A DNA stretch of 63,809 nucleotides, counting the filler, from Hausera hauseri (taxonomy: Eukaryota), in NCBI GenBank assembly GCA_046269625.1. It is 10 parts of 10 records of this genome, joined end to end, with 100 filler letters (N's around TTAATTAATTAA, not from the genome) between each part and the next. Parts side by side here need not be neighbours in the genome. Positions count along the whole stretch, not along the records: positions 47,033 to 54,690 come from JBJURY010002569.1; 9 more parts are not named here. One strand, written 5' to 3'. Below the pieces are notes generated by a model. That model was given only the letters and a program-made list of their open reading frames with translations. It searched no databases and was not told where the DNA came from. Within the stretch, counting starts at the first letter, position 1, and each line of letters opens with the position of its first letter. The position numbers were made by a program, and so were the translations under genes. Of this stretch, positions 5,982 through 60,039 are shown piece after piece.

Positions 5982-6165
5982 TGATGTAAGCCAATACATG
6001 ATATATTATCAACCGAACCTCTAGCCTCTTCTGCTTTTTGACCTAAATGCGGCTGAAGTGGCTTAGAATTGTTTTTAATTTGTCACTCCTGCTTATTTTG
6101 ATGATGCTCTCTTCAGCTGCATTTTTTTTTTGTTGTTATTGCTCAGAAAAGTGATGAATACTCAC

Positions 6166-19560: not shown

Positions 19561-19569
19561 ATAGCAGAA

Positions 19570-19830: not shown

Positions 19831-20098
19831 TTCCCTAATAACAATTCATCCTCGGCTATCGAAGGAATTGAGCATCTCTGTTCCAGTGCATCCGATAAAG
19901 AGACTGAGTAATTCATCCAAAGGTAGTCCAACTGTTGTTGCAATACATATTAAATTTTATATGAATATTTTGATCAAATTTGCCTATAAAAACTATTTTG
20001 TTCATTCCTCGCAGTTGAAATCATTTGTAAGCATGCCCAGTAAAGCCCAGCAATTTGCCTCTACAGCTAACGACTACGATGAACAGCCAGAGGGGTCA

Positions 20099-23000: not shown

Positions 23001-26000
23001 CACGTACATCCACAGAGATGCGTTCTTTCCTCGGAAACTTGCATTTTATTCATAAGCACGTTCCGCACTGTTCCTCTTTAACCGCTCCATTTGCATCACT
23101 AAGCTTTGGCAAGAAAAAACAGCCTATTCAGTGGACCGCCAATTTAGTCAATGCTTTTGATCTTCTCAAAGACAATTTGAAAACTGTGGAAATCCTGGCC
23201 TATCTAGACTCCCATGCAGAACTTTTCTTAACCACCGACGCATCCACAACAGCTGTAGGTGCTGTCCTCCATCAAGTCAAAAATGGATCCCATGAGCCAT
23301 TGGAATTCTTTTCGCGAAAATTCAGAGCACAAGAGCAAAGATATTCTACTTTTGACAGAGACTTGCTTGCAATGGTCCTTGACGTAAAACACTTCAAACA
23401 TTTGCTAACTGCACGAACTTTCACAATACAAACGGGCCACAAGCCCTTGCTCCAAATTCTCACCACGAAATCGTCTTCTCCACGTCAGGAGAGGCAAATA
23501 TCGTATTAGTCAACGTTTAATTTTGTAATTAAGCACTTAAACGGAGTCGACAATTTAGTAGCTGACTTTTTGTCCAAATCAATCAGCTCGATTGATTTTG
23601 CACCAATTTTTCCTCAATCCAAACTTCAGCAAAAACAGCCACCTCCTGATATCCTTAAATTTTTTAAATCTTGCAAAACCATCGATGGTGTGGCCTTTGA
23701 TATCTCCAAACCCTATAATCCCAAAATCATTCTTTCTGAGTCGCTTCAAATGAAGCGTTCCACAGCGTACATTCGCTGCATCATCCCGGTATCAAGGCCA
23801 CTTTTCGACTCTTACAACGCCAAGGAGTATGGCGGTTGATGCGCTGTGACGTGCAGGCATGGGTTAGGCAGTGTGTGGCATGCCAAAAATACAAAGTTAC
23901 TAAGCACCTAAAGCCACCGCTGTTTCATTTTCCCTGCACGTCTCGTTTCGAATCTGTTCACATTAACCTTGTAGGCCCATTAACCCTTAGATAACGGCCA
24001 TCAGTTCATCCTCACAATGATGGACCGTTCCTCGCGATGGCCAGAAACCGTCCCGTTTCAGAGCACCAACACAGAAACCATCGGAGAAGTTTTCATTCGC
24101 ACTTTGATCAGCAGGTTTGGATCACCTCACCACATCATTTCGGATCAAGGCCCACAGTTTGAATCCAACCTGTTTAAAGCTCTTGTCAATCGATTGGGAA
24201 TTAACCACATTTACACGTCACCATATAATTCCCAATCGAATATCATCCCCAATACGTTTTCTCGAACGCTTTCACCGAACAATGAAAACCTCTCTCAAAA
24301 TTCTTACTGAGTCCAATGGCAGTTGGACTACACTTCTTCCGTACGTTCTGCTTGGCTGGTGGAACACACCATCTACTTCTACAGGCTGTTTACCTGCAGA
24401 AGCATTATTCGGCACTTCCATTAGATCATTACTCGACTGACTGAGCTGGACAATACTCTTACAGACGAAACTATACAAGCGGCACAGAGACACTTCGGTG
24501 AGATCAGAAAAGACTCATTGTGCGGATTTTTACTCTAATTCACATTGAAATAACGAAGATAAACGATTAAATGAACCCATAAACAGTAAAATCTAAGATC
24601 TTGATAAAACAGACTGTATTTATTTCTTAAGATTCAAAAAAACTAATTTAATAAAACGATCCAATCAATTATTTATCACTATATTATTTCAACACATTTT
24701 ACGACAATGCAGTTTACGACAAAATCCAATTTGAGACCACTTTAGAATTCAATTTTGTGGTGAGAATATAGTAAACGTGACAAATGATGTATCCATATAG
24801 TTTGGGTTAATTTGATAGGAGATTTGATAGATCGCAATTTGCGCTTAAAGTTGAGATCTCGTCTGAAAAATTGGAGATTGACGAGCAACTATCCCAGTGA
24901 GGAAACCGAGCGCACCCACGGCCAACGGTACCACAGTTACACGCAAATAAGCCCTATATACTCGACGATTTATATATTGCCAAGTTCGTTTGGTTAAAGT
25001 ATCAGATGCCGTGTGGCTTTCAACCTCAGTATGTCGGCCCTTACAAAGTAATTCGCTTACAATCCCATAACATCATCATTCTCAAAGACGAGAAAGAAGT
25101 AACCGTTCACATCAATAATACTAAACCGGCCTTCTTCATCGACGACATGTCTCCCATCGAAACTACTTCTCCACCAACATCTTTATACGACGCGCAGCAA
25201 TCCAACAATTCACCTTCCATCTCTGCTCAGTTCTTTAACCCACTTTCTCCTACGTTTTCTCCCAAGGCTTCTACTTCAATTTTTTCTGACAGTTCATCCC
25301 AATTTTCCCCATCCGATTTTGCACCTTCAAGCATTTTAACACCTCCTTCATCCCCTGGTGACAACCTGCTTTCTCCTCTTACAAGACCTCCTCCTCCAAA
25401 CACCACTTCGACTTTACCAATCTCTTCATCTACCCTTTCATCATTCCATACTCTTGCATCCCACCTTTCAAATACTTTCCTTCGCCTTTTCCATTTTTTT
25501 GCTCTCTTCCGTTTTGTCCCTCTTTGCCGTTTTCTCTCTCTCTCTCTCATTCTCCTTCCACACCTTCCTCATCTTCCGTGCTTTCTTTCGCCCTTTCACC
25601 TCACAAATCGTCTTTAATCCCTTTCATTTCCGCTTCGCAACTTCCTCTTCTTTTACTTCTATTCCTATCTCTATTCCTCTTTCTACTGCTACCTCTGTTT
25701 TATTTTCCACTTCCACTCCAACTTCTACTCCAACATTCGTCTCTCTTCCTTCATCCGCCACTACACCTTTTGTCATTCCTTCGTCTTTTAACACTCTCTT
25801 GAATACCTTTAACCATCCGTCTTCAACAATTTCGCTTCCTCCTTCACCTTCTCCTTCTCTTTATTCTGACTCATCTTCGCACGACACAACACTCACAACA
25901 AAATCCGACAATTTCTTTCCCCAACTTCAAACTCTGCAAACAAACACACCGCATGAAGACAAAACATGCAGTGATATTTAGCAAGTATAGCAGGGAAACA

Positions 26001-26300
26001 TTAGTAGAGGGCACCCAACGCCTTGTTCACACTAAGACCAGCTGACACACTTTTTCATTTAGCGCTTGTTTCTTTCCATCCTTTTTAATCTTTATAGTTT
26101 TCGCTTTGCTATGGGGGGTGATGAGGTGCCCACAGCGGCTGGTGCCCTTTGACCCATTTGGTTGGGCACGGCCGGGCCTTCGTTTCCGCCGCGTCGGGCC
26201 CATAGGCGAGCCCCGGTCTTCCGACTCGAGGATTTAAGCAACATCTACAGTTTAACCAGTTGCTGGAGATACTACTGGCAGGCTAAAAATGAATACAGGT
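20099..26300 (+). mobile_element. Decayed Ty3/gypsy LTR retrotransposon, CsRN1/Boudicca-like (gag, PR, RT, RH, IN, 3' LTR)
   Basis: PBS-like CGGTCACCCCG at 20100-20110, resembling the tRNA-Trp PBS TGGTGACCCCG. Gag KPSEFL...LAELADK with CHCC-type knuckles. PR FLIDIG, RT WSSPLHVVPKKDGTFRPCGDYR and YIDD, RH TDAS, IN SRWPE and SDQGPQFES. PPT GGGGGG at 26113-26118, then a GC-rich LTR. The LTR end is approximate. Confidence 0.93.
21497..21537 (+). promoter_or_regulatory. Putative -1 programmed ribosomal frameshift signal (gag to pol)
   Basis: A AAA AAC (21497-21503) lies directly before the gag stop, and the -1 frame is open into the protease. A 7-nt spacer precedes potential pseudoknot stems GCCG/CGGC and CTAG/CTAG. 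Confidence 0.7.
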
Positions 26301-27569
26301 GAAAAGTATACTTTTGATAGAAAATAGCCTGAAATTCGAGCTGTAGTAAGTTGTTGGTCGCTGACACCGCTCGAATCTCTCGCCGGAGTTGCTAATCCTT
26401 TTTGTCAGTATCCGACAATCGAAGTGTTTGCGTCATCTCACACTTTTTCAATATCGCCTCTTATCAGTCACAAGAATACTATCATATCAAATCTCATGCG
26501 AAAATTTAACACCAAAAAAAATTAATTGGACACTAGTTCTCAAGATATTATGAAAATTATGAGGGACTTCGAGATTAAACTTTCAATGCAGGAAGGAAAA
26601 CACAAGACAAATCAAAGAGAACGAATTCAACGGCATGATGAAAATTTGAATANNNNNNNNNNNNNNNNNNNNNNNNNNNNNNNNNNNNNNNNNNNNTTAA
26701 TTAATTAANNNNNNNNNNNNNNNNNNNNNNNNNNNNNNNNNNNNNNNNNNNNGGAGTTGAAAAACATGGAAGATGGTAGAGTGATTCGTAGAAGAGTGGA
26801 ATGGTTGGAAAGAGTGAACAAGGATCATAAAGGAGATGGGAAAGTAATGGAGCAGCAAAAATAAATAATAAGCAAATTATTAATTATTAATTAGTTTAAA
26901 TATTGGATAAATAATAAATACTTTTAAAAACTCTGGACTTATATTTGATTTATGAGCGAAAAGAAAGCAAGTGAATTCCAGGATTTCGATCCTCCAACTT
27001 TGCCGAGCAAAGTCATCTTTACTGTGTTCATCGGAAGAATCGTAAGTCTTGGTAGAATACCTTATGGGTAGGTTATCATTACTTTCAATAATATTAGAAA
27101 GTCATATAATTATTAGAATCAAGGATCAGCTATAAACAAGAAAGATAACTACTACGAAGAATAGTACTAGTATCAAGGAAAAAGCGATAATTCGTTCAGT
27201 AATCACTATCGTACAATACATGTTCGTTTATTACCCTAACAAGTCAAAAATGGATAATCGAGAGGGAAATGGGATGGAATATTCAATGAGCGTACCCTCC
27301 GGATAATGTTATTCGATTTAATAATTTGGTTACAACCGATTGTTTAAATCATGATATAATATGTATATTATGACCACTCTTGAATTGCGTACAATATTTT
27401 GTTATCAATATAAATGTAATCCCAGAGAAATACCATTTTAGTCGACAGTAGTTGGCAGAAATCTCCTGATTTATTCGTGGACGATAGAGAATGAGTGGGT
27501 GCGGTTATAATGGGAGTGCCCTTATCGTCAGACGGTCTGTTAAAACTACAAGACTACATTAAAGGAATG

Positions 27570-29039: not shown

Positions 29040-29560
29040 TAGTTACGAATTAATTAGGTGCAACTCATAACAGCCCAATGCACCTTCTCATATACAGCGC
29101 CTAACTTGATGTATAGCTGCAAAACCTATAGTGTATAATATAGTTGGACTTTCGCTCATGAGTTAGCAGCAATTTTTTTATTCGTGAACCAGGAGGGCAT
29201 TGGCTGATTGGAGCTAAAGGCAGTTGGTCTAACGTATCGTGCTTATTAGCCGGAATGCTCAAATCAACTTCAAAGACGAGTACACGTCTTTGTGTGACAG
29301 TGTCGACAAAAGGCAATTGACTAAATAGGCTGTTTAATTTATCTTTATCGTAAATTCAAACTAAATTCGCAAATGGCCACAGTTGAGATAAAGCCCAGCA
29401 GTACAAATTATTCACATATATATACAAGATCGTTGTGCTTTCATCAGTGGTAACCCTATGCTTATTTACAGAAGTCATGCCACCGCGAATACCCGATTGG
29501 AAAAAATTATACATTTCTGGATCATGAATGTGCTCAATAAGACATGGACTCGTTGTTGTA
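29040..29560 (-). pseudogene. Fragment of a Polinton/adintovirus-type family B DNA polymerase
   Basis: DPEMYNFFQSGIRGGMTSVNKH, LYIYVNNLYCWALSQ, FEVDLSIP..HDTLDQLPLAP, KKLLLTH...YIIHYR. Visibly homologous to 56902-57306. Confidence 0.88.
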
Positions 29561-35788: not shown

Positions 35789-36815
35789 GTGAAATCTGAC
35801 AATTTAATGATCTACTATTTAANNNNNNNNNNNNNNNNNNNNNNNNNNNNNNNNNNNNNNNNNNNNTTAATTAATTAANNNNNNNNNNNNNNNNNNNNNN
35901 NNNNNNNNNNNNNNNNNNNNNNGTGAATTTGCAACCTTATAAAGTAATAGCTCAACCAAGAGGATCTACCAGTTTAACAGTATAACTATAGGTAGATCAA
36001 ATTGAATTAATTATAAATTATATTCGTCTATGATTACATAAGTCAGAACATTTACCAGAAATTTAACCGTGCAAATACTCATTTAAGTTATATCTTCGAG
36101 AAAGTTAGTGGTCACTCCGGCGGAATCAAGCAGATAGAAAGAGATTACTTATTATCGTTCTGAAATTAAAAGCAATGGACAACCGACAGGTGGAATCGAC
36201 CGTGGACCAAGATAATAGTATCGGTAAATATTGTGTTAAATTTTAAATAGATATTAACATTAAGAAATAAATGAAAGTTTATAAAGTTATGCCGCTATGT
36301 TGATATTTTATGTATGTTTCATTTCAATAAAGTATTGACAAAATCGGTACAGTTACTGCTAAGGTAACTTAGATACGATGAGTTGAGTCGTTCTAAGAAA
36401 TTTTGTAGTTTCAAATTAATGGCACTTTAAAACACTTTATGGACAGAAATTGAATGGATCCTTACATATCTAATGAGCGAAGTACAATTGTGCCTCGTTA
36501 TCCGACCATAAACCGTTATAGAAAGCTGGTCACGTTCCGAGCAGTTTTTATTTTTATCACTTTAGACCACTTTATATGAAACTTTCTCTCATCCACACCA
36601 TCTAAACAACATATACAGACTCACATATGTACATAGACCCATGTCCCTCCCTCTCGCCTCCCCCACAGTGTTTTGATAAATGTCCATGAACAAATTCCGT
36701 CTTGCATCCAACAACTTTTTGTCGTCGTCTGCACTCTTCTAGCCTCATTCTGGTGATCACTTTTAGTCAGGACTAGGAGAAAAGTGAAGACCATATTACT
36801 TGTATTTTTTTCTAG

Positions 36816-36951
36816 GTGTTACCCCTGAAATGGAGATCCTGATGCAGAGGAGAATCTATCCATTCCTCCTGATGGTGGTGTCACTCATCGGCATCCTGTC
36901 TTTCCAGATCAGACAGTTTAAACGACTTTATGAGCACATCAAAAATGACAA
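36816..36951 (+). CDS. MARCHF6: Single vertebrate/teleost-like exon of E3 ligase MARCH6 (near the C-terminus)
   Basis: GVTPEMEILMQRRIYPFLLMVVSLIGILSFQIRQFKRLYEHIKNDK matches the vertebrate MARCH6 C-terminal region. Polypyrimidine-AG acceptor at 36814-36815 and GT donor at 36952-36953. Codons are GC3-rich. No other MARCH6 exon was recognised in the contig. Confidence 0.9.
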
Positions 36952-36974
36952 GTATGAATGTTCCGGTCTTCCAT

Positions 36975-37260
36975 CATTTTTTTTGACAATTCTAAAGGCA
37001 ACTTTAAGGAAGCTTATATTTCACACAGAGTTGTACCATATGAGCAATCTTACCCACAATCGGTAGCTGATAGTTTAAGTAAACAGATTGAAAATTTTTC
37101 CGATATGGGTAGTGAGTTGAAGCTTGTGAAGATTCTTAAATACTGTTTCCATATATTTAAAACAAGTCTATAACCCTACTTGTCTAGCAAGTCCTATATT
37201 CAAACACCTAATGCTTTAAAAAATGCAATGACCGTTGTAAATACCCAAAATGAGGGCTGT
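36975..37260 (+). pseudogene. N-terminal fragment of a Polinton-type PolB
   Basis: FDNSKGNFKEAYISHRVVPYEQ...IENFSDMGS...SYIQTPNALKNAMTVVNTQN aligns by eye with FENVEGDRKQWYLSHRAVPY*E...IASYTEKGS...SFIATPAALKQSLSVANVKN at approx. 59045-58775 (-). Confidence 0.8.
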
Positions 37261-37759
37261 AATTCTACCGATAATGTCGACATTGGTTAAACGCTAACAG
37301 AGTCAAGTTGAGGATGATAATTCCAAAAAAATAAATCCAAGTTTCCAAAAGAGCATACTACGTACAAAGTTTATTTACAACAGATATAACGTGAATTGTT
37401 ATGTACGGAAAAATTCAAAACTTAATCAATTTTTAGTCATCAGTTATTTCAAATCATGAATTTATTCATGCTCTTCACGATCCAAATGCAAACAAATAAT
37501 GAGACATTATGGATTTGGCTTCACCAATTTTACTTGTTAAAAACAATTGAGGTAAACTTGCAACAGATTCCAAATAAAAGAAAAGGTCCAAAATAACGCA
37601 ATAAACAAGAAAGAAATGTTTATGCTTCACCAAAATTTTTTGACAAAAAAGAATTTGAAATTGTTCACACACTGTTAAACGTGTCAATTGTAACTTTTGC
37701 AAAATGTTCAAACAAATACTGTTGGCACACCTTTATCTAAGATGACAACTTTTGTATCG

Positions 37760-40700
37760 TATAGTTGCATGGTGGGGAAATACCTTTCACCGATCCGACA
37801 GCCTCAACCAGTGCAACCACATTCTACATCCCCCTCGGTGTCAGGATAAAGACTATAAAGAAAAAAACAAACGCAGGTTATAGTAAGAAAAGGAAAGATT
37901 TGTGGCTATTCGGTTTTGGTATGTGTCAGATGTTGTATTCCATCTATAAATTTCTTCCTACTGTAAGTACTAAATGTCACATGACGTGATCTATTAGATG
38001 TTGCTGCCGCTTGTGGAGTTGTTTGAGGGAGAGATTCTGCAGATTTTGTGGTGTTTTGGGAGGATGTTTTATGAGATGGAAAAAGATCACGCGACGAAGG
38101 CGAAACTAAAGATGGAAGTGAATCGTGCGATAAAGGTGATATGACTGCAGGGTGAGTGTGTGGATGTGCAGGGGATGACGGCGAAGTAAGTGGTGAAGGA
38201 ACAATAGACGGAAGTGAGGATAACTGATTGTGACGCGAGAACGATTGATGCGACGGATCAAAATTATTGAGAAAATTGGTTGATGGCTCGAGGGGATAGA
38301 AGTTAGAGTTAGGATTTGAAACAATGCTGTTATCCTGGTCATCGTCAACGAAGAATGCTGGCTTAAGATTAGAAATGTGTACATTTTGAGGTTTGTCCTT
38401 GCGTAACATAGTAGCGGTGTGCGAGGTAAGGTTGAATAGTTTGTTAGGTTTAACGTATTGAGGACGAAAACCAGAGGGTGACGGATCCTTAAGCCACACA
38501 AACTTGGCTGAGTATAAGTCTTCTGAAATATAGGATTTGTTTTTATTTATAAAGCGGCAAAATGCGTTTGCGTTAATATCTACAAAGTGGGACTGTGCCG
38601 CACGAATAACGTCATCTGACGAACTTTCATCGAGATTGGAGAGCTCAAAAGGGCACGAATTGGTGTCCCAAGGAGAGCCTCAGGTGGAGCACAACATGTG
38701 GTGGTGGGTGGCGTGTTGCGCCAACCGAGTAGCACAAGAGGAAGAATTGAGGTCCAGTTATGATTGTTGTTTGACAAGATTTTCAAAGAAATCTTCATGG
38801 TTCTGTAAAATCTATCAAGAAGACCATTTGCTTGGGGGTGGTACGGTGTCGTATGAAAACTGGCTATACCCAAGTGCTTTACCAGAGATTTAAAAAGATC
38901 AGCTTCGAATTGCGGACTCTGGTCCGTTATTATGTGACGTGGTGAACCAAAACGACTGACCCATATCTTGATAAATGCATCTGCTACAGAGTCGGTGTTG
39001 GTTGATCGAAGAGAAACGGCTTCCGGCTAGCGAAANNNNNNNNNNTTTGAGATGTTTATGAACCTTATATTGTTGACATGCTACACATCCCTTAACCCAG
39101 ACCTGTACATCTGTGCGCATATTCGGCCATGCAACATAACGTTGCAGTAGCCAAAATGTAGCTTTTGAACCCGGATGATGAAGAGAGTGAAAGTGAGTGA
39201 AGGCTGTCTTTTGTAGCAATGGAGCAAGGATGATTTTTTTATTAATCAAGCTGGATGTGTCGTAGGCGATTCCATAGATGATCTCAATCGATTTGAAAAC
39301 TTGAAGAATGTCAGATGATGGCTAATTACTTCTCAGGACTTCAGATGAAAAAATTTTCTGAACTGTAATTGAGTTGACCGACCGCGAAAGAAAGTCTGCT
39401 ACTAAATTCTCGGTGCCTGAAATATATTTCATGGAAAAACTAAACGTGGGCAGGTATGATATCTGTCGTTCTTGTCTCGGCGATGGCTGTTTTAACGCCA
39501 TTATGTGAAGTAAAGGCTTATGGTCTGTTTGAATGGTTAACTGACGTGATAGAAGCAAATGCTTGAAATGCTTTACCGCTGGAACTACAGCCAAAAGTTC
39601 GCGATCGAATGTTGAGTATCGGCTTTCTGGTCACGTTAGCTTTCGGAAATAAAATTTTAATGGTTCATCAACACTATTGTATATTTGGTGTAATATCGCA
39701 CCAGTGGCTGTGATGAAGGCATCGGTGATTAGTATGAGTTCCGCGTTGGGTTTTTGAAAAGCCAAGATTTCAACGGTTTTCAGACCTTCACGAGGGCGAT
39801 CAAATTAATTTACTAGATCGGGAGTCCAGTGGATTAAGTGTCTTTTCTTTTCAGATGAGAGTGGTGCGAAAAGTGCCGTTAGTTCGGAGCAGTGTGGCAT
39901 GTATTTGTGTATGAAATGCAATGTCCCTAGAAAACTCATCATATGGATAGTAGTAGTTGGTAACGTCACATTTTTTAATTGTTGTAAGCAATCAGGCTTG
40001 GGCGAATAACATTCGGGAGCAATTATATGGCCTAAACCGTTGACGCGTTTCTGGAAGAAATTGCATTTGGCGAAATTGATATGCAGGTTGCTTTGATGCA
40101 ATCTGTGGAAAATAATTCTAAGGTGCTCATGATGCTGTTTGATCGAGGTGTAAGCGACTAATAGATCATCTATGTATGGGTGAGCAAAGTAAAAACATGA
40201 CAGAACGGTGTCAATGTGGCGCTGAAAGGTCTAAGATGCACTACGTAGCCGAAAGTCATGAAGATGTATTCATAAAGGCCAAATGGTGTGATGACAACAG
40301 TTTTTGGAATATCATCAGGTACAACAGGAATTTGATGGTAGGCCTTATCCAGATCAATGGTAGAGTAGGTATTGGTGTTATTGAGGCTATAAAGAATATC
40401 CTTAATAAGTGGTAGTGGATAAATATCTGTAATAGTTAGGTTGTTTAATTGGCGATAGTCACCACATGGCCTCTAGGTACCATCTTTCTTTACCACTACA
40501 TGAAAAGGAGAAGCCCACGGTGAATTCGATCTCCGAATGATGTTAGACTTTTCTAGTTCATTGAATTCCTGTTTCACAGCTTTATGTCTGCGTGGCGACA
40601 AGGGTCTGACCTTTTGTTTGATAGGACTCTTATGCTTTGATACTATATGGTGATAAGATGTGGATGGAGGCTTGAAGTTTACGTCCCTTTTAACTATGCA

Positions 40701-41275
40701 AAAGCAAGACGTTGCGATGTATGATTTAATATCGGAGTCTAGAGATAAGAATGAATAAGGCATATCATCGGACGAGACAGTTGCAGTAATTGAGGAAGAA
40801 CAACCGGCATTGCCACGGTCAATATTCAGTTTGGATTTTTGTTTTAAAATTGATTTGTGATTGCTATACTCGTTAGAATTTGACGAGGTATTCAGTATAT
40901 TTATAGAAAAGTGCATTGAGATGTTCGCTAGATTGTCTGCGAGACATATGTTTGGAATTGCGATCAAGTTCCTGCTCAAGACAGCCGTATTTGCAATGGA
41001 CCAATAGATCATGTACGGCAAGAAAATTTGAGCCTATTATATTGGAGATTTAATATTGGCCACGTGGAACTTCCAGACAAACGTATCTGGCAAGTTGGCA
41101 AATGTGAAAGTCAGTTCCGTGGTTCCTGCAACGTGCAACGGTTGCCCACTGTCAGTAAAGAGCGGAGGACAGGAAATTATAGTGGATGTAGGATTGAAGG
41201 ACAAGGGAAGGAGTGAAAAGGCAGCTACTTAATCTATTAGGAATTCGATATGTGAGGTATCTATGCATAACAATG
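37760..41275 (-). mobile_element. Second decayed CsRN1-like gypsy element (PR, RT, RH, IN, PPT, start of 3' LTR)
   Basis: SPWASPFHVVVKKDGT, YIDD, TDHKPL, HSLHHPG...CVACQ, TTPYHPQANGL. PPT GAGGGGGA at 37836-37829 is followed by TG. Confidence 0.93.
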
Positions 41276-47032: not shown

Positions 47033-48290
47033 AAACATGCGATTGAAACCAATATGTTTGACGATGTATCTAAGTCAGTATTATAAAATAAAAAAGAAAT
47101 CGATTCATTTCTGAAGTTTTTGGCAAAGAACAAGTCGTAAATCGAGGGATACATCGAATAATAGATGACACAGCGGGAGAAGGAAAATGGGATCGATTAT
47201 GGACGCCGGATGCCTATAACAAAATTATCTTAAATTTGTGGTACAAAATGTGGGTAGGATTTCTAACATTTGGCCAAGTAGCCTCAGCGTTTCTGGCAAT
47301 CAATTTCATTATACAGACTTTAAAAGTTTGTATTAACTCTGTGCTGAATGCTTATGATATCTACAATCTAACGGGACTATCGCTAAGTATAACACATGCT
47401 TTATTTTTCCCAGTCGGTAAATTTATCAAAGCCTACCATGAGACACAGTGGCGAGGTAAATTAGAAAAACATGTTAGTTACAAATCAGAGAAACAATTCC
47501 CAAAGGATACTTCATCAAGCTCATATGACGGTACTGCCCCTAGGTACTATCCTACAACAGGAATTCCTAGAGACAAGAGAAGAAAATTCAAGTTTGCGAA
47601 GCTTAAGCGAAAGGATAAGCACAAATTGCCTGATGCACAGTATGAAAGTAAAACAATGCCTAATTTTAAATTATCCAATCTAACAAACTTAACGGACCCT
47701 TATGCGAAGAAAGAAAACTACATAAAATTATATAGTTTGCCTAAGTACTCTCAAGAAGAGATACGTCAATTCAATATTACGCAAAATATGAAAAATAACC
47801 GAGTAACGTTACCAGTATCACCTAAACTGGGCATGATACCGCAGGTATCTTGTCACCTAGTAAACAGGTGGATAAAAGCTCAACCAGATAGGAAATCCCA
47901 TTATACAATTCCATCAACTAAACCCAGTAATGTGCAACAAAAACATCAAAATATTTAAGCTGTTATCCAGAATTGACTGAACTCAAAAACAAACCAAAAT
48001 GATCAGACAATGATACCCAATATATGGAAAATTTAAGGGTCATATTAGTTAACGGGGAGGCTAGATACTGTTTAGCCAGTTATACTTTGATGAAACCTCA
48101 CATAGATGATAACAAAAACGTTCTAAAATTTCTCGAACTACTAAGAGATAATCGACTTCACACAACAGTTCATTTCGGTACTTTTGACCGAAACGCTATG
48201 GTGGATACGGGAGCTAGTGTTACGTTAATAGCGAAGTAGGAAATTCTGGAAGAATTACAATCTCAAATAAAATTAGCCACCAAAGACTCA
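47033..48290 (+). mobile_element. Retroelement fragment: C-terminal part of a chuvirus-like envelope glycoprotein followed by aspartyl protease-like domain(s)
   Basis: FGKEQVVNRGIHR...LWTPDAYNKIILNLWYKMWVGFLTFGQVASAFLAINFIIQTLKVCINSVLNAYDIYNLTGLSLSITHALF (membrane region). Degenerate PQVSCHLVNRWIKAQPD..SHYTI. Clear retropepsin motif NAMVDTGASVTLI at approx. 48192-48230. Confidence 0.6.
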
Positions 48291-48933
48291 CTTGGTACTG
48301 TGGTGCCGCGGTCGTGGACGCGTTTCGTTTTCTCGACAAAGTGTTGTTTGTAAATCTCAAATCATTGAAGCAGAAGCTCAACAATCTCTTCAACATATCA
48401 GAAAATCATAATATTTTGGACTCATTGACGAATTGACATTCAGCATGCAAATCATCCGCAGAAATTAATCGAGGAGAAAATGCAGATATTTACCGATCTA
48501 ATCCTGATAAAAACGACAAATTCAATATTTTAATTCTGGAATGAAATGACAATTACCAGTGTATAAAACATGAATGTTTCTGTTTTCTCTACAGTTTTTT
48601 CTTTACACGAACGTTTAATGTATATAGTTTGTTGGCTAACATATTAGTTTATATATGTAAATATGTTTGTAAATTTTCTGGAAATATGTATTGATTTAAA
48701 ATAAATAAATAAATAATTTGTGATTCAAGACATTTCATTTCTTGTGGATTTATCTCTTCTATCTCGTCGTCATTTTGGATTTTTTTCTAATGAAATTACT
48801 ACCCATGTCCTTGAAACCACATTGGTGTCAGAACGTTATACAGCAGAAAACTATGTATTACCAACAAGTTACAGAAAGTCTGTCAGCAAAAGAGATTAGT
48901 TTTTATTCACCACTTACATTTACCGATGATACA

Positions 48934-50875
48934 ATGTTTTCTGGGACATTATCAAATAAAATTAAGGCTAGCAAATTTTCCAATTCCGAACCTCAGAGTA
49001 CGTCATCGACAAGTAGTAAACTACTGTTAACAGTTTTATGCCAATTCTGTGGCCAATTTCATGGAAAAGATTTACCACATCTCTATGATTACAATGAATC
49101 AGTTGATTCAACATTATTGTGCATTATTTGTCATCAACCGATAGTCGATCCAATTGATACAAATTGCGGTCATACATTTTGTAAACCTTGTCTGAATAAA
49201 CATTCATCAATTCAAGCGTTGTGTCCCGTTGATAAGAATATAATCAATTCTCAGGAGTGCAAACAGGCATCCAATATCGTTAAAAAATTATTGGATAAAT
49301 TAAAAGTTGTTTGTCCAAATGTGGATTATTGTGAAGAAATTTTATATCGAATGACTTATACCAGTATTTAAAATTCAAATGTCGTGGGGCATTCAAAAAA
49401 GAAATAATCAAAGATAAAACTCAGATAACTGAAGGTGAGCTATGTGAAATAGAAATAATCCGTGTTAATCAATATGACCTTGGGTTCTCTTTTGTCGGTG
49501 GAGTGAACTCACCTCTAAGATGTATTGTTATTCAAGAGATGTGTTTGGACGGATTGATTCCCCAGGATGACAGATTACGTCCTAGTGATCAGCTGCTTTC
49601 GTTAAACGGAATCGACCTCAGTTCAGCTACACACGCTAAAGCGAAACGTGCCCTTTCAGCGCTAATACCGAGGTGTAAATTTGTGGTATTACGCGAATGT
49701 GTTCCTGTTTTCACTGAGCATGAGACGATAGCGGTTGTTCTTTCAAAGAAAAATGATTCACGGTTAGGTATTGCTCTGGATACAAAAAAATATTACGAAG
49801 GTATATACGTACGAAATGTTATTCCCGGTAGTGAGGCTGACATAAATGGATCATTTACAAAAGGCGACAGAATTTTATTTATTAATAATGTTGATATTAC
49901 AAACGAATTTCAAGAGTTTGCTGCAAAATTAATAAAAGAAGCTTCAGTTGATATTTCATTTGTTGTTCAAAGGAGACTGAGTGTTCCCGATGTTGTTAAA
50001 ACCAAAGATGACAGAATTTCCTCAGGGAGCTGGAGCACGAATCAAATGTCAAAAGGTTGTCATTCTGAAATGATTTCTCGGCGACAAGTTGTAACTTTAA
50101 GTAGCAAATGTTCAGAAACTAACAGTCCTAGATCGTACTTTCAAAGTAGAAACACATTTGATACTCAATGGCCGACAGTTGACAATTACCAGAAATAAAA
50201 TTTACAGCCGCAGTTTCCTACGAATGTTCTACGCATTCGGAAGGAGCCAAATGAATCGCTTTCAATTACTGTTGCAGGGGGTTTAAATTCTCACCGCGGT
50301 GACAGTCAAATATACGTTACAAATATATTTCCAAATGGTGTGCTTCACCATTATAAAAGGATTAGAAAAGGCTGTGTATTGATCGGGATTAATCAATACA
50401 CTTCACTTCACTTGTCTCACAAAGAAGCTGTTGATACATTGAAACATGAGTGCTATGGTCATCAGCTTGTTGATCTTCATTACCTTGACGGTCCAGAAAC
50501 GAGTTCAGGTGCTGGTAATTTTATGCCAAGCTGGAAATTTTGGCTCCAGTTACCTTTCTTTTGTTCAAATCCGAAAATTGTTGAATTGAAAAAAAAGAAT
50601 CACCAAGTGTTAGTTTAGGATTCAGTATTGTTGGTGGAATTGATTCAGCTAATTCTATTGACGCAGGGGGCTTTGGGACTAATTTCATTATGATTAAAAC
50701 CATTTCGCCTGGCTCAGTTGCTTGTAAGAACGGAAAATTAAAATGTGGAGATATACTCCTCGAAGTGAATAATACCTCTTTGATGAGTGTTACCCACAAC
50801 GAAGCAGTACTGTGTCTTAAGAAGGCAGTCAATCGTTTTTTTAAGATAATCTCTTGGCCTGGAACTATCGTTTAA
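48934..50875 (+). pseudogene. LNX: LNX1/2-type RING plus 4-PDZ E3 ligase, full length, no introns seen, at least two frameshifts and one stop
   Basis: CQFCGQFH...HLYDY..VD..LLCIICHQPIVDPIDTNCGHTFC, KLLDKLKVVCP, EGELCEIEI...LGFSFVGG, four PDZ domains, F.PSW..WL.LP, C-terminal SWPGTIV. Confidence 0.92.
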
Positions 50876-51039
50876 TGATGATGGTTTTAGTCATTTTGAT
50901 ATTTATGGTCTCAATGATTCTTACGCGTATATTAATTCTGTCTTTCACAAATATTGATTTCACATTTTAACAAGTTAATAAAAGTTATAATTGTATTTGG
51001 ACTTAATCTTCATTTCTTGAATTATATATTACATTTGGA

Positions 51040-52255
51040 TAATTTATGTCAACTTTACAAATGGTGTCAGATATTTATAAAATTCTTAATACAAAACGAT
51101 GCACAGTTTATTCAAGAAAATCACATCCAGCAGCCTTGGAAACATTGTTTGGAGTTCTTTTTAAACATCCCGAATAACGAATAGAATAAACAGCATACGA
51201 AAAATTTTATGAATACTTTAATAAAGATGTTGAAGTATGAGAATGAAGAAAATGCAAACATCTGCGTGAAACTGCTGTTTGATATTCATAAATCTCAATG
51301 TCCTAATTTTTCCAATGAAATCCTCCAATCCTTAAAATTCGTACGAAACGTATATAAAGAATTACAGAATCATACAATCAAAATATTTGCTCAATCTCCG
51401 TATTATGAAGTTGACAATATCGAAGAATTTTCTTTGGAAACAAAGATTTTGGAAACGTTTACCGTCACAAAAACCTTTACGATTCAAAAGGACAATAATG
51501 GAAATCGAATAGAATTTAATCTTATCCCAAAATCGTGTTACTCATTGAAAGTAATGCAAGAAGTCCCCGTTTTATTAGTTTTAATGTACCAATTTCATAA
51601 GTCATACGTTTCGAATGAAATTCTTTTATTTATCCCATTTATGGACCTTTTAAATCTCGTTCCGACAGACGCCCAAAAATGATTTACAGTTCAATGAAAG
51701 TCTATATCTGCATTTTCTGGCTGCTCAATTGAAAGCGTTGTCCTTTCTGGCATGTCGTGAAAATTTTCAAGAAAGCATTGTTAGAGAAACATGCTGATAA
51801 TTTGGTTTAAGGTGTATCAAAGGATTGTCAACATTCCGTCGTACGTTACGGAAGGAGTATTTCATTACAGCTCGACATATTTTAGCAATTCAGGAAATTA
51901 AATCACGATTGCCAGAATTAATGAATGAAGACATTCTCATAGTAAATGGGTTTACAGTTTATCGGTTACTAAGACCAATGGCCTTTAGCACATTAGCTGA
52001 TATAATCCATTGTGTCAAAAACGAATTAAGTTTACCAAAGCAACCAACATATACATCAGCAACATGCATGATGATACTTTGGTTTTTAGTATTCAGCAAA
52101 TGAGCTTAAAATTGTTACTAAATTTAATCGAACCAATAAAAAATTGTGTCCAAATTTCGGCTGATGCCCAGCAAGGTCGGCAAATACTAACGAAAATTTT
52201 GCATGATTTTGTTAAACGACTGGGAAACATCGGCAAGTTTTATCTCCCAAGACTT
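51040..52255 (+). pseudogene. TRRAP: N-terminal fragment of TRRAP/Tra1
   Basis: QFIQE..QQ..K, ENEENANICVKLLFDIHK, IPKSCYSLKVMQEVPVLLVLMYQ, LRKEYFITARHIL, LRPMAFSTLADIIH, IQQMSLKLLLNLIE. About 400 codons with frameshifts. Confidence 0.9.
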
Positions 52256-53094
52256 GGAAAAGAAAGTTTAATCGAATGTATTAAAAAACGAAAAAAAATG
52301 TTGTAAAGTCCGTCGGAGAGGCAACACGGCTTGATCGAGAAGAATTTGAAGCATTATTTATAGTTTTCAAAGGTGTTTATATTGCACCCAGTTGTTGCAC
52401 AACCCATTTGTTGACGCTCGCACCAAATATGAACAGTTATGATCCTGTCCGTCCATATTATGATGCCTGCAAAATAGATTACGAACTCTTTGCCAGGTTG
52501 TTCAAATGTCTTTTACCCTGGGGATGTCCTAATTTTATCTCATTGAGGGTTTTCCGTTTGCTCGATTTGAATCTGGATAACATGTTTAATTTTAAAGAAT
52601 TTGCTTGGATAGTTGGTATCGTACGCATGTGCACTTTGGAGGAAAAATTGAGATTCTTATACCGTCATTATTATAGACCTTGTCTTTTGCCTGGCGATGA
52701 AAAACTATTGAAGAAATCGGAAAATGTATCGTCAATGAAACCTTGGTGTAACTGTCTTGATCACACAAAAAGTGACGGTAGTCATGAATTCGGAATAGAA
52801 CTAACGGAAGCAATGCTTGAATACATTCCAGATAGTGATGAAATAAATAAAGAAGCTAAAGATGGTTTGCCCAAAAAGCCAGAAAAGAATGAGAATATCG
52901 AAGTCAAACCGAAGGTTTCGAAATCACGATCAAAAACTGCATCTATCAAAAATACTTTCCATTGGTTAAAAGACTCCGATAATTTACCAAACATGCAATA
53001 TAACGATATGCTAGAATCGTGGACAGGTCTCTACGATTTTGTAGCTAATAGTGATTCCATGAGCAACACAGTCTCTTCCATGCTTAAAGATTAG
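52256..53094 (+). pseudogene. C-terminal (EF-hand) fragment of a TBC1D8/TBC1D9-family RabGAP
   Basis: KKNVVKSV...EEFEALFIVFK, YDPVRPYYDACKIDYELFARLFKCLLPW, RVFRLLDLNLDNMFNFKEF, LEEKLRFLY. The GRAM and TBC domains are absent. Confidence 0.85.
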
Positions 53095-55295
53095 AAACAC
53101 AGGAAAAGCTTTATAACTTATCTTGTAAATACACACACTGAATTACGATTGGTAAAGAAGCGAGCCGAAGAATTACTTTTAAGGCAAGTGTTATAAAACA
53201 TTTCAGGATGATCACCAAGTCTTTGCATAGAATTTTATGGCAATACTTGGTGGTTCTTTTGTACCGTTGTTATTAAGCGTCAATATATTGAACGCATATA
53301 TCTAATAAATGTTATTGAAGAAACAACTTTATTGCTATGGAAATGTGGACAGTAAACAAACATTAAAAATCGAATGTATGGGTAATTTATTGTGTTATGA
53401 ACACAAAGATTTTCAATTACTTTAAATAAGTGGTGCTTAAAATGTAGTCCGTGGTTAATTATTTAGGGGTCCGTGAACTAGCGTCTATTATTTTATAAAT
53501 GTTGTAAGTGTTATGTAGACATGTGTACATCAAAACGTAGAACGGAAACAATATGAATGTTAAAGCTGATTATCGGCTTCACCTCACCAATGTTTCACGA
53601 AATATTTTTCATCTTTCGGCAAAAAAATCAATCACATCTCTCCAACTGAACTAATGATTTCATTGTTGTATTTACAATAGACATTGATATCAGCTATTTT
53701 TATTAACAAAACGGTACTAATTGCTTTGCAAAATGATCGTTGTTTCGGTGGCCCGCTTAAGAATATTATGGATTTTGGGTATCCTTTTCTAAAATAAATT
53801 TAGGAACCATTGTACTATAATAAATATAATTGAATCAAATACTGGATTACCGTTTTATGCTCATTCTATAAACCGAATTTGAACATATTTCACATATGGC
53901 AGATGTTTTATACTTGCAGACAGATGATTGAATATTGATGTCGTTCTTTAATTTCCGGTTCTGTCCGACGTTTTCTTTTGATAAGAAATATAATAATTTC
54001 TTTAGTTTGTATACGTTTAATTTAGCCGAGTACTTTTTATTATTCGTATTTCTATGATCTTTTGAAATACATGGTTAAAGTTGGTTAACATTATCTGCTT
54101 CATCAAACCCATACTTTGCGTTAAGGGAGAATTTTATCTTGTACGTTTTTTGTTATAAATCAAAAAGACAAATATTTGTAAGATTCTTAAGAAATAAATA
54201 ATAGATATTGCCAAATTATATGACTAATCATATAGTATGATTATCCGAGTAGAAATTGGTCATACCATTTATTTTTATGACGAAGAACCGTTTTTAGGTA
54301 TTTTTAAATTCACAGGAAAATATCTTCATGCGACATTTTCATTATATAATCCACTTGTAACCATTGATACGTTTTTAAATAAGAAAATTAATTTTACGGT
54401 AAATATGGGTTTCTATCAGAAAATTATCAAAGAGGTGCGAAATTTATGCTGAAAACTAATATGAAAATTTTTTTCCGAGAAGCCAAATTAACGCATTCAG
54501 AGCCTTTAAATGTGACGTCATTTCGCATTTGTTCAAATCTGCCCCATTACGTTTAGGAATTTTAAGCTTTTACAAAATTTTCATTACTTTTCTCGAGTTA
54601 ATATTCTTTTAATATTCGATCGTATCTTTTATGTTCTGATGAAATAAAATACCCATCGAATATAGTCTGTGATCACTCATGTGCATAGCCNNNNNNNNNN
54701 NNNNNNNNNNNNNNNNNNNNNNNNNNNNNNNNNNTTAATTAATTAANNNNNNNNNNNNNNNNNNNNNNNNNNNNNNNNNNNNNNNNNNNNATTGAAGGAC
54801 AAAAGTTTACAGAATTCCATTCACAGTTTCCCGAGTTGCGAATGACGACGTATTCAACAACATCGAACAACTTGCTGACGATGGTACCTGACAATATCCG
54901 ATGTCCGTATCGTGATCATGGACCACATTGTGCTTACAAAAAATGTCCACGGCTTTGTATTGACTGTTTCATGCAAATAAATAAATATATGTACGTATTT
55001 ATTTCTTTCTGTTCATGACATATTTAGCAGTATTGGTCAGTTGAATAGTTCAAATACCATAAATACGGGTAGGTTATAATAATAATAATCATGGACTATA
55101 ATGGAAATTGTACACATTACGAATGACTTCAGTAACATTGAGGTAATTTGTATCATTCTGATGAGACAGTACTCACAAAGTAAATATCTATTGTTTGCTA
55201 TGAAAGCAAACCGGTATGAACAAATTTCATATAAATAGAGATGCAATTTCATTTGACGTGTCTTATTTAAAAATGTCTGGAAAACAATTTAGCAG

Positions 55296-55734
55296 GTGAC
55301 AGTCTCTCAAAAAAAGCCAAGGTACAGTGATTATTCGCTTAGAAATTCCCGGTTGTATAATGGATACAACTTACGTTATCTGCGCTACGCTATTCAATTG
55401 CCATTGACGCAAACGGTCAAAATTAAACCGGTGAAATATGGTATATTGGTGAAAAAGATTAGCGACGATGATTTAGATACAATGGAAGATACAATTAGAA
55501 AAGTTGGCAGTGATTTGGCATTGAGTTACTATATCCGAGATACATTGTCGATATTTTCTCAAACGAAATATGGCGAAAATTGTCAGTTCACATGGCGGAG
55601 AAAGAGAAGCAGCAAAAGCAGTTTTGCCACCGGAAGGAGCTAAAGACCGTCTAACATTGAAGTTGAAAGGATACAAGGATCTGCATGGAGTTAAATCACC
55701 ATTATGGAAGATGGGAAAGTTTACGCTCATTTGA
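55296..55734 (+). pseudogene. Small frameshifted ORF convergent with the PolB; possible element-encoded accessory protein
   Basis: Two adjacent open frames (IQLPL..VKIKP...; LPPEGAKDRLTLKLKGYK...SPLWKM) end tail-to-tail with PolB across an AT-rich spacer. Confidence 0.3.
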
Positions 55735-55918
55735 CTTACTTTGTTTTTGATTTTAGCTTATGATTATTAATAAATTTTATTGATTTTGTTTGTTTTTTAT
55801 ATTGTTTCTCGTCACATTAGGCAAAAACAACGAACAATATAAATTATTTATACAAAACAAACAGATCACAATGAATTATCACAGTAATTTGATCTCTCTG
55901 TATCATCAACACCGTGTT

Positions 55919-58900
55919 TTATTCCAAACGCCAATGTCCGTATGCCCAACTCTTATTCCGCTTCACCCACTTACGCTTATCATCATTGCATGATAAAGCG
56001 ACTTTTGAACTGGTCACCGTATACAGCTGGTGCTCAATTGATTGGATGATCGTTTGTGACACAACAGCCTTTGATTGTCCTCCGTCTCCTGCTTCATAGA
56101 CACGGCGATAATTACCAAGGTCGATTTCCATCTAGGCCAACTGAACTGTTTTGGCGCGCATTTTCGGTCCACAGTCAGTTAAAAGGCTATAACATTTTGG
56201 TCGTAGAAATATCCACTCCCTATACTGAAGCCGACCTTCACTTTTATTTTTGAAGCAGCCAATTTTGTTTATGATTGCGTTGCTGTACAATGGATGATTC
56301 TGTGGGTAATTGGACGTGTCCAGTAATCCGTCTGCCATCATTTGCTGCAATAGTGGTTCGAGATTGCCGTTTTCCAGTTCCAAGAAAAAACTGTCTGTCA
56401 CCGACAATTATATTGATCCTGCATCTGCCGCCGCCGATCATTTGCCGGTAACGTGCCAAATCGTGATACTGCAGCTCATACATTCACAACATGCTCAGGT
56501 CCAATACCACTTGTCCTATATAATTTGATCGGTCCAGTACGACTTCTCTGTTTAAAAGCACGGTAACCAATCCATCGGCAATGTGCATTGACTGCCTGAA
56601 ATGTGCCTTGCTCGTGTGCGTAACCAAGCGCTTTTCGCTATTGCATTGGCGTACATTGTGCCGCTTTTTCAGATTCTCCACTGGAAATGTTTTTCAGCTT
56701 GTAATATTCCTTTTCGAACTTTGTTCAAGCTTCTGCCCCTTTCTCCGAATTTCTATCTATGTACGCCTTGAAAATTGGAACTTGAGCAAATCGGATCGCA
56801 CGATACAGCTGTGTGACGCGTACACCCAACTGAATGTAAAATTGCACCGGACGCCAATTATCTGTAATTTTGCTTGGGTTCATGCGTAATAAGCAGCTTC
56901 TTCACCTTCGAGCCCGGCGTACATTGATTGGTGCGACCGGTAGTTTATCCAGAAAGTCATGCAGCTCATCTGGTACCACGAGATTAACCTTTATCGGGTA
57001 TCCGATTGAGCTGTTTTCTGCTGTTGTCGTGTCTGCTCTCGACACATTTTCCAGTATTGTGTTCAGGTCCTGTTTGTTAACTACCCATTCGAATGAACCG
57101 TACGGCAAGGGTTGTGAAAGCGCCCAGCCGTACAGATTACTAATGTCGATATACAACAGTGATGTGGTATCATTACTGGTTACGTGATGCTTGTTGACAA
57201 ATGTCATGCCGCTGCGAATACCAACATCAAACATTCGGTACATATCCGGGTCTTGCAATGGCGCTATATCACGATCTAGTGACATCAGAGTTGATGCCCA
57301 ACTCATTTCGGGTATTGATTAAACGTTGAGTGGCTCCAGCCTATCTTCTGCCAACGCTTTCGCTCGAAACGCCTGGAACACATTGGCTAATAAGTACACG
57401 TCCAGTTTAAGATACTGGTGCATGTACTCCAACATGTTTCTACAGCCAAGTTCTGTCCAAGATTCTTGTGCTCTATGATATTATTCTTCTGTGATGCCTG
57501 TCCGTTGCGGCGGTATTTCCTCTGCTGTCCGGAGTCGCTCATATGATGTTGCAAAGTCATGGAAATATGCCTTTGCTGCGTGCAGTGTGGGGAACTGCGT
57601 TGAGATTATCGGCACATCCGGCAAGGCATTTACCAGCTTCACCAGTGATTCATTGAGAAATTGCAATGAATCAAGGAAGAGTACCTGGAACCGGTTTATG
57701 CGTGCTAACAGGGACAGGTACTTCTCTATTGTTGTTTGGATTATGGACAGTTCCCAGTGCCGAAATCCGTTGATGGCCCATTTAAGTATATGGCGGCAAT
57801 CATAACCTCGGAAATTATGAATGATAACCGGTAGGAATGGCCGCAAACGCCTTGTTAAATTGCATGCGTTGCATGCTGCTCCCAAGTATCGTCCGGTGAA
57901 ATGATCATGGTCCGGTACGAGCCGTTCCTGTGCGTCAAAAGGCTATTTTGTGGCAGAGGTAATATTCATCGGTAGCAGCGAAAAGCAGCGGTTTATATTC
58001 GTCTGTTTATATCAAGGGCTTAGTGCTATTATTACTGTACCATGGTGCGATTTTCGTTTTCACTATCGTTTTCAACTGTTGCAGGAAATCGCGTATACAG
58101 TTCCAACCATGAAAAACGTATTATTGCGGTTGTCCGGCGGCTTTTGGTCGTATACGTTGTGCCGCGGTAGGATTGCTTTGATATCGGCATATACCACATA
58201 TGCCGGACTGTCTGTTTTCGACCAGTCACTGAATCTCAGCTCCTTTTTGACTGACATGACGTACATTGTTGCTTCTGATGAATTTTGTCTGCACAGCGCC
58301 AAATGTTTTCCCATGTCGTTTTTGGCCTGAAACCATGCAGACATGTAGGACATCATTTACAATTTATAAGCTTTTTGATGAATTGGTGGTGATCCATGTT
58401 CAGCAGTCTGTCCAATTTGATTACTGCCACGTAGCGACATTTATCTCCTTGCTCCAACAGCAACAAATTTACCGAGCGTCCATTCGGGTTCCGACTGCGA
58501 TAAATTATATCCACGTGTGGCTTTTTGTATATCTCTTCATCTGCCGGTATTTCTACGATTGTTTTGTACCGGAAAACGTTGATTGCCATAGTAGGATTAC
58601 GCCGTTCAAATGTCGGGATAGATTTCAGTTTCATCGGCATCCAGCTTTCATCAAATTCCAATTCGGAAAAATACTGCCGATACTTCTTTGGACGATTTGC
58701 ATGATTTCTAACCACTTCGTCGTATTTGAATATAGCCAGAATACTGTAAATAAAACAGTATTCGTCGTCGGTATTTTTTACATTCGCTACCGACAGAGAT
58801 TGCTTTAGAGCTGCTGGTGTCGCTATGAATGATTGCCCAGACAATTATATCATATCATTCAACTTTGTTATGATAAAGCCGAGAGTTGCAATTTTTATAA

Positions 58901-59230
58901 TTCTCTAGCCACTACCCTTTTCGGTGTAGCTGGCGATTTTTTCATCCAGCTTCTCGCCTACATCGGCGATAAAATCTTCCTAATATGGTACAGCTCGATG
59001 TGATAGGTACCATTGTTTCCTGTCACCTTCAACATTTTCAAATTTCCTCAAGTGCGTAATATTGCACTTTGCAGTGTTGGTGTTGAAATTTCTCTTTTCA
59101 ATTCCAACCGGTTGCGCACGCTGGACGGAACATGTCTCAATTTTGTTGTTGTTGTTGTTGTTTTCGCCGACATGTTCACTTTTATGTCCACGTATGATCT
59201 GTTCAAATCGTACTTGGCATTAATGTCGGG
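55919..59230 (-). mobile_element. Near full-length decayed protein-primed family B DNA polymerase of a Polinton/adintovirus-like element
   Basis: Motifs in order: VKNTDDEYCFIYSILA, YVVYADIK (exo I), DHDHFTGRYLGAACNACNL (endonuclease VII-like), HNFRGYD (exo II), FLDSLQF, GIRSGMT, YIDISNLYGWALSQPLPYG, YIGQVVLDLS, TDSFF, LRPKCYS, KVALSCNDDKR. Confidence 0.92.
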
Positions 59231-60039
59231 TTCCTATTGTATCTGTTCCTCTTGCTGGTGCTGCTCCTGCTGATCCTGCTGTTGCTCTTCTTGCAGCTCG
59301 GTACTGGTTCTGATGTATTTGTCCAGACTTTTTGATGCCTTACTTTCCCTACTGGTTGTTNNNNNNNNNNNNNNNNNNNNNNNNNNNNNNNNNNNNNNNN
59401 NNNNNNNNNNNNNNNNNNNNNNNNNNNNNNNNNNNNNNNNNNNNNNNNNNNNNNNNNNNNNNNNNNNNNNNNNNNNNNNNNNNNNNNNNNNNNNNATTTT
59501 TGTTGATTCCATTAATATTTGTTTTTTCGACCACCGCTGAAACTGGTCTAAGTGGTCCTGGTGCTCATTGTAAAATTGTTCATATTTGATTTCATCAACT
59601 ATTGAACAACCGGGACAAATATAGACCCGTTTATCGTGCACAGTTGTGGCGCCATAGTATTGCTCCATTGCACTATGGCAATCACCAACGTTGTGCACTG
59701 TACTTGTACAGTACCGTGGGTACATGGGGCAATACACTAACATCATCNNNNNNNNNNNNNNNNNNNNNNNNNNNNNNNNNNNNNNNNNNNNTTAATTAAT
59801 TAANNNNNNNNNNNNNNNNNNNNNNNNNNNNNNNNNNNNNNNNNNNNAAGTTGAAAACGAAACCAGAGAAAAATTCAATATTTTCTAACATTCTTTTTTC
59901 CATTAAACTTTTTAAAAATTATATTATTTTGTATACACATGAAGTATTTAGGGTTATTATACGTACACATTAACTTGTAAAAATTAATTTGCAACTACAT
60001 TTAACCAAGAAAATTATCAAAAAATTTTTGGTCAAATAG

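Follow-up and report, generated by a model that had tools for sequence, protein, structure and literature searches.

Three co-oriented gene pieces behind an LTR and a shortened primer-binding site in Hausera hauseri

The window analysed is a stretch of 63,809 nucleotides, filler included, from Hausera hauseri (assembly GCA_046269625.1), in which ten parts of ten records are joined end to end. One of these parts, the contig from JBJURY010002569.1, carries a head-to-tail train of three gene pieces behind a long terminal repeat (LTR) and a primer-binding site (PBS). All features are summarized in Table 1. The first-pass annotation had named the pieces LNX, TRRAP and TBC1D8/9 in this order, and their identity (LNX, TRRAP and TBC1D9), order and plus-strand orientation were borne out by structure, Pfam and named-protein matches. 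A search of Rfam yielded no match.

Table 1. Features along the contig at 47033-54690 (positions count along the whole window).
Feature	Position	Strand	Remarks
Fusion-glycoprotein-like ORF, C-terminal part	47092-47958	+	Pfam Monjiviricetes_fusion, E 1.4e-12; summed depth 250-4000 in run X1
Retroelement aspartyl-protease-like remnant	48003-48298	+	DTGAS motif; ends where the LTR begins
LTR	48299-48821	+	523 bp; perfect 6-bp inverted ends (TG...CA)
PBS, cut to 11 nt	48823-48833	+	Complementary to the 3' end of tRNA-Leu(CAA)
LNX1/2-type copy, near-complete, decayed	48834-50959	+	Zn-RING, four PDZ
TRRAP 5' piece, decayed	50960-52260	+	Database-supported at 51191-52261, human residues about 108-469
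TBC1D9 C-terminal piece, decayed	52270-53196 (probable end)	+	EF-hand region onward, without TBC domain
Low-depth stretch	53197-54457	.	Depth 2-8, about 1.26 kb
Very abundant repeat, contig end	54458-54690	.	Summed depth 8757

The LNX copy had been described as a fragment. This description was not upheld, as the copy is near full length and retains its own stop codon at 50873-75. The RING region matched the structures of LNX2 and LNX1 best (E 3e-25 and 5e-25), the four PDZ domains follow it in the Pfam search, and the best single-domain match of PDZ3 was again LNX. Possible starts were found at 48853 and 48937, 19-103 nt after the piece begins, and at the other end the piece runs about 84 nt beyond the stop, so that LNX was copied roughly over the width of an mRNA. 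The 3' limit at 50959 is set by a single contig which ceases to fit there, on the side that we take to be the misfitting one. Within the TRRAP piece, which carries Pfam Tra1_central, 51191-51643 corresponds to human residues 108-254 and 52037-52261 to residues 397-469. We infer that 50960-51190 belongs to TRRAP as well; neither 50936-51181 nor 51074-51181 gave a database match.

For the last piece the best named matches were TBC1D9 proteins, whose GRAM and TBC domains lie upstream of the part found here. The alignment to them starts at 52270 or 52288 and ends at 53037, and the Atlas search returned EF-hand clusters only, with low recognition. The piece had been thought to end at 53094. It probably extends to about 53196: the stop at 53092-94 is absent from four sibling contigs, and the depth of the siblings falls off near 53195. 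In six of six tests, however, 53095-53196 showed no significant protein similarity to the homologues. The proposed switch from TRRAP to TBC1D9 near 52255 within one open frame was confirmed as to its place, between about 52250 and 52288, while the single frame is only possible, because the TRRAP ORF and the database-supported TBC1D9 match do not share a frame.

The sequence in front of LNX had been reported as an unassigned coding-like piece at about 48295-48560. It is not coding but constitutes the front of the LTR, which is followed by the PBS; the longest stop-free run of the piece in six frames was 49 codons. The LTR with its PBS, overlooked at first, is the most telling feature of the contig. 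The stretch 48299-48717, with an AATAAA run at 48700-48717, was at one stage considered the 3' end and tail of a LINE. Pfam returned nothing meaningful for its frames, and the idea was dropped once the LTR ends and the PBS were found. The LTR is separated from the PBS by 1 nt. By chance 0.0002 inverted ends of 6 bp would be expected at a given place and 0.003 matches of 11 nt to tRNA-Leu anywhere in the contig, both values being computed after the fact. We take the sequence after the PBS to bear no likeness to flatworm spliced leaders. A second PBS candidate at 51062-51071 (10-nt match, 0.009 expected by chance) is doubtful: the spacer preceding it, with a low depth of 5.3, is unlike the LTR end, and 595 of 1000 shuffles scored as high. 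This candidate probably lies within TRRAP coding sequence, judged from the human sequence.

The joint between element and LNX became visible in the contigs of run X1. This run contains a fraction of 0.59 of the words sampled and is possibly the sample from which the window derives, so the two are not independent; depths are summed contig figures and not copy numbers. The 11 nt of the PBS are identical to the opening 11 nt of an antisense probe against tRNA-Leu(CAA) given in PMC7997516. Exactly behind 48833 a sibling contig departs from the window; the seven letters that follow in it extend the PBS to a match of 18 of 18 with that probe. The full 18-nt PBS of the sibling and the divergence at 48833 show that the joint falls within the PBS, behind nucleotide 11 of 18. 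Judged by sequence comparison, the ordinary element carries the full PBS, and the train copy switches to LNX at this point. On the 5' side host sequence is thus joined to LTR-element sequence and replaces the internal sequence. Summed depth over the LTR was 215-685 and dropped to about 35 just past it, versus 2.8-5.8 for exact-match contigs.

Two facts, the start of the train inside an LTR element's PBS and the sense orientation of its three pieces to LTR and PBS (1 in 8 by chance), lend specific support to template switching during reverse transcription. We therefore consider it probable that the train was carried by a non-autonomous LTR retroelement, in which copies of host mRNAs took the place of the interior through such switching. 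Reverse transcription of LTR elements is primed at the PBS and proceeds by two strand transfers, with copy-choice between co-packaged RNAs, as outlined in the consulted parts of PMC6894440 and PMC7175516. For the train, the co-packaged RNAs would have been host mRNAs or transcripts from other copies that already bore cargo, and minus-strand synthesis would have jumped from TBC1D9 to TRRAP to LNX (3' to 5'), either within a single round or, by recombination between copies, over several. The last of these jumps would have led back to the element inside the PBS. The second strand transfer pairs through the PBS, and the jump may have occurred at this transfer; otherwise a length of 11 nt may be close to the minimum for priming.

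Afterwards the product would have landed in the protease gene of a different LTR element and would have decayed there. The protease remnant in front of the LTR had retroviral aspartyl proteases as nearest Atlas clusters (score 0.91) and no Pfam match, and the ORF at 47092-47958 is read as part of a different, older LTR element. As the LTR abuts the protease remnant behind this fusion-glycoprotein-like ORF and no purine tract was found ahead of the LTR at 48299, a nested insertion is suggested; the pairing of protease and LTR is read across the 523-bp repeat.

The 3' side fits this origin less well. The TBC1D9 piece is trailed by 1.26 kb of low-depth DNA in place of element sequence, which counts against template switching. 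Neither a polypurine tract nor a second LTR copy was found in 53197-54457, and within the 1.5 kb before its end the contig shows no return to the element, no 3' LTR and no target-site duplication. This low-depth DNA after the TBC1D9 stop resembles genomic flank and, together with the lack of a 3' LTR before the contig end, would suit an origin at the DNA level. An intact LTR element would have inserted beside an existing cluster of duplicated gene pieces (segmental duplication plus deletion, the genome being intron-poor), and its PBS would then have been fused to LNX by a deletion; later spread could still have occurred by LTR retrotransposition. The unequal abundance of the pieces (depth bins of 23-109 for LNX, 1-15 for TRRAP and 39-93 for TBC1D9) points the same way. 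However, in an element of several kb a deletion would hardly end within a site of 18 nt unless a reverse transcription step or selection for priming were involved, and the three of three sense pieces speak against it too. Moreover, the contig misfit 84 nt past the LNX stop suggests, on the side assumed for it, that TRRAP is not the natural follower of LNX. We regard this course of events as rather unlikely, though it is the main alternative.

The intron evidence bears on the same question. About 4.1 kb of coding sequence in the train reads without introns, and a GT..AG candidate explained none of the five frame breaks or joints tested. Near 52596, 54 of 65 short homologous ORFs (up to 200 aa) cease to resemble TBC1D9 within a few residues, versus 2 of 42 long ones, in a comparison that omitted 19 proteins of middle length, 18 of which read on. 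From these alignments we take the site to hold an intron in other animals; the window would read across it uninterrupted. Six of 52 loose ends of sibling contigs were viewed, and an intron reading was discarded for those at 50598 and 52314, as the first does not begin with GT and the second does not end in AG. An LNX sibling contig (depth 22.5) ceases to fit at 49390 with 74 letters left over, which may represent an intron of the abundant copies.

Nevertheless, the absence of introns from the train is weak evidence, because an intact EPRS gene on another contig has an uninterrupted coding exon of 3.64 kb, with one 56-nt intron candidate just before the start. Such long exons favour the DNA-level origin by weakening the intron argument. 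The organism may be intron-poor. We assume that the train contig and the EPRS contig derive from the same animal. The intact EPRS groups with cestode EPRS proteins (support 99; FastTree, 38 of 121 sequences), and a further contig of the window carries CD22/siglec-like immunoglobulin exons. From the EPRS tree and these exons the window is read as DNA of a flatworm, probably a parasitic one and perhaps a monogenean, mixed with fish DNA.

The possibility that the train is a chimera of assembly or amplification, joined through repeats at low coverage, was weighed against the contigs of run X1. The exact-match contigs are only 2.8-5.8 deep, the LTR and two of the cargo pieces are repeats, and the pairing of the protease flank with the LTR spans the 523-bp repeat. 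The LTR/LNX and LNX/TRRAP joints were not bridged by any of the 8 pieces listed of 157. In contrast, the TRRAP/TBC1D9 joint was bridged by a 283-nt contig (52104-52386, depth 5.8) that shows zero differences and extends by more than 100 letters to either side of it; a second exact contig covers 51765-52080.

The lesions gave a divided picture for the claim that the pieces are decayed. Run X1 contains the window form at 49348 (total depth 26.8, of which 22.5 with an extra letter), at 52034 and at 53093 (total depth 138.5, of which 133.1 with another letter), which argues against a chimera. At 50197 and 51184, however, the X1 contigs examined show only the other letter, so that the stops at these two positions are supported by the window alone, as a chimera would allow. 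A break inside the PBS would not be expected of a chimera, and we hold this explanation to be very improbable. The train itself is a dead mosaic of pseudogenes, in which nothing points to a function.

On 48730-53330 a total of 156 X1 contigs were aligned, 39 of them at least 99% alike, 42 at 95-99%, 40 at 90-95% and 35 below 90%. The high LNX depth reaches to about 50577, and the last PDZ domain with the spacer shows only 3-6; the TBC1D9 depth ends near 53195, with 2-8 beyond 53196. LNX siblings are about 99% alike (3 of 255 letters differ), and single TBC1D9 positions are covered by up to seven distinct contigs. One sibling departs from LNX at 50598, two enter TBC1D9 at 52314 from other sequence, and one skips 52390-53049 (660 nt) with three shared letters and without GT..AG ends. 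Every piece thus has diverged siblings in run X1, some with different neighbours, and these differing neighbours indicate that the train is one mosaic among several and not a fixed unit. By analogy with Drosophila retrocopies and Bs1 (PMC5131818), the many siblings with other neighbours would fit a secondary amplification accompanied by reshuffling. The genome-wide reach proposed in the first-pass annotation draws its support only from the siblings in this one run and from further contigs of the window on which an LTR accompanies cargo. Word-index protein searches with the TBC1D9 and LNX pieces found neither parents nor other copies, the LTR-end pattern and the TBC1D9 piece were not found in metagenome contigs, and LNX gave only generic RING matches in viral contigs.

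A bolder and rather doubtful version of template switching would make such reshuffling a standing process. A flatworm family of non-autonomous LTR elements would keep only the LTR and a minimal 11-nt PBS, with an interior formed by a pool of host mRNA copies reshuffled in each round. 5'-complete mRNAs would be captured at the second strand transfer via a cDNA end joined to the tRNA-copied end of plus-strand strong-stop DNA. If true, an animal would possess a permanent system that shuffles genes on a large scale.

It is typical of Helitrons that gene pieces occur in many copies and share one orientation, and the pieces of the train have this appearance. A Helitron or a Pack-TIR DNA transposon might therefore have made the train, the LTR having arrived beside it later or by coincidence; Pack-TIRs are known from animals (PMC8277862), and the contig ends in a very abundant repeat. 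A scan for the 3' Helitron signal gave five weak hairpin-plus-CTRRT matches in the contig but none at the train ends. No terminal inverted repeats were found around the train, no introns were carried along, and the cargo abuts the PBS, all of which leaves capture by such transposons with little credit.

Equally little weight is given to LINE-made processed pseudogenes, or free cDNAs, end-joined at one break beside the LTR. LINE retrocopies are often 5'-truncated, and the TBC1D9 piece is 5'-truncated and all pieces are intron-free. However, no A or T run of at least 9 was found in the contig, the TRRAP piece is truncated at its 3' end, and the supposed LINE tail at 48299-48717 was overturned by the LTR ends and the PBS. 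Of the three mechanisms offered in the first-pass annotation, template switching gained ground by the PBS start and the uniform sense orientation, while Helitron capture and cDNA end-joining gained none.

With template switching as the preferred origin, the train would be an instance of LTR-mediated capture that covers three genes and roughly 4.4 kb, in the flatworm phylum, for which our literature search found no report of this process. From the PBS-internal joint the capture could be assigned either to one particular step of reverse transcription or to the minimum of sequence that priming requires. If the siblings really swap cargo, they would offer many natural products for the study of exon shuffling driven by reverse transcription. 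The literature search returned no precedent for a joint in the PBS; the yeast primary papers (Derr 1991, Schacherer 2004, Maxwell and Curcio 2007) may describe one. The terms 'PBS' and 'primer binding' are absent from the text and nine of the ten supplement files of PMC5131818. A single joint at a single locus does not establish a new variant of LTR-mediated retroposition.

The closest known system is LTR-mediated retroposition as presented in the consulted text of Tan et al. 2016 (PMC5131818), where switches onto host mRNAs replace the interiors of LTR elements. There, as in the train, partial host-gene copies lie in the element interior without poly(A) and two or more parent genes can be combined; the copies described there can also re-amplify non-autonomously, which may hold for the train as well. 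In those cases part of the internal ORFs was replaced, and both LTRs and microsimilarity were shown, whereas here only the 5' LTR side is seen; the 5' joint lies inside the PBS, and three genes of about 4.4 kb in total are involved, one of them near full length. According to the same text, maize Bs1 likewise holds pieces of three unrelated cellular genes in an LTR element of several copies. In yeast Ty1 retrosequences (PMC7175516, part consulted) the reverse transcriptase of an LTR element also copies cellular RNAs into processed pseudogenes, but these are experimental and mostly single-gene. Helitrons and Pack-TIRs share the multi-copy mosaics of gene pieces, and the train differs in that it lacks Helitron ends and terminal inverted repeats and its cargo abuts LTR and PBS. 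The process itself is known from flies, mice and maize, and what distinguishes the present case is the PBS-internal joint, the size of the cargo and the apparent swapping of neighbours.

The intact EPRS gene is followed downstream by a stretch that we read as an LTR head carrying cargo, of a family different from that of the LTR preceding the train (the decayed LNX, TRRAP and TBC1D9 pieces). The stretch was found 75% alike to the 3' LTR start at 26127-26210; after it, a NOG1-like GTPase piece (Pfam MMR_HSR1) and then a weak DNA polymerase B scrap were identified. EPRS itself clusters with cestodes in the tree, lacks the WHEP domain and is encoded by a single coding exon of 3.64 kb, with a 56-nt GT..AG intron candidate immediately 5' of the ATG. 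The coordinates are summarized in the table.

Features of the window by position
Feature	Position	Strand	Basis or remark
Long degenerate tandem repeat	1-5200		Window start
CD22/siglec-like immunoglobulin exons	6143-8787	-	
Decayed OGT, scrap, gypsy RT-RNaseH-integrase, LTR start	17162-26652	+	Intron-free OGT
LTR head with cargo, other family	31231-29356	-	~220 nt downstream of EPRS
Intact EPRS, ~1210 aa	31448-35150	-	Pfam domain search and tree
MARCHF6 exon	36816-36951	+	Pfam MARCHF6_C; on contig 35923-41275
Decayed protein-primed DNA polymerase B	54791-59747	-	With endonuclease VII-like motif

Further gene pieces were observed near gypsy elements. The decayed OGT, devoid of introns, and the scrap after it, presumably of DEAH helicase likeness, sit upstream of the RT-RNaseH-integrase of an element whose G-rich tract and LTR start were located at 26113-26119. 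Another gypsy element has its purine tract and LTR start at 37828 (-), and the MARCHF6 exon lies ~0.9 kb behind them, in antisense. The exon, which we take to be vertebrate in look, possibly represents fish DNA within a parasite retroelement, or else a chimera. It is flanked by AG/GT, and the surrounding DNA is intron-like. For the CD22/siglec-like exons a fish origin is likely.

Within the train, a second 10-nt match to the tRNA-Leu(CAA) primer-binding site was found near the TRRAP start (51062-51071; chance expectation 0.009), with CA and 2 nt directly before it. This match is probably a coincidence within coding sequence; alternatively, TRRAP mRNA could contain a cryptic priming site here. 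In the sequencing run X1, the fit of an LNX sibling contig (depth 22.5) to the window ends at 49390, with 74 letters left over, and the window copy shows a short linker from the RING region to the first PDZ. The window copy may have been internally deleted, or the siblings may carry an intron or insertion. One X1 contig leads out of the abundant contig-end repeat (54690) and, with 36 letters of other sequence in between, returns to 53358; the low-depth tail after the TBC1D9 piece would be either tandemly copied or present at a second locus.

Sequence comparison related the DNA polymerase B at 54791-59747 to the scrap at 29382-29493, and we assume this element to be Polinton-like.
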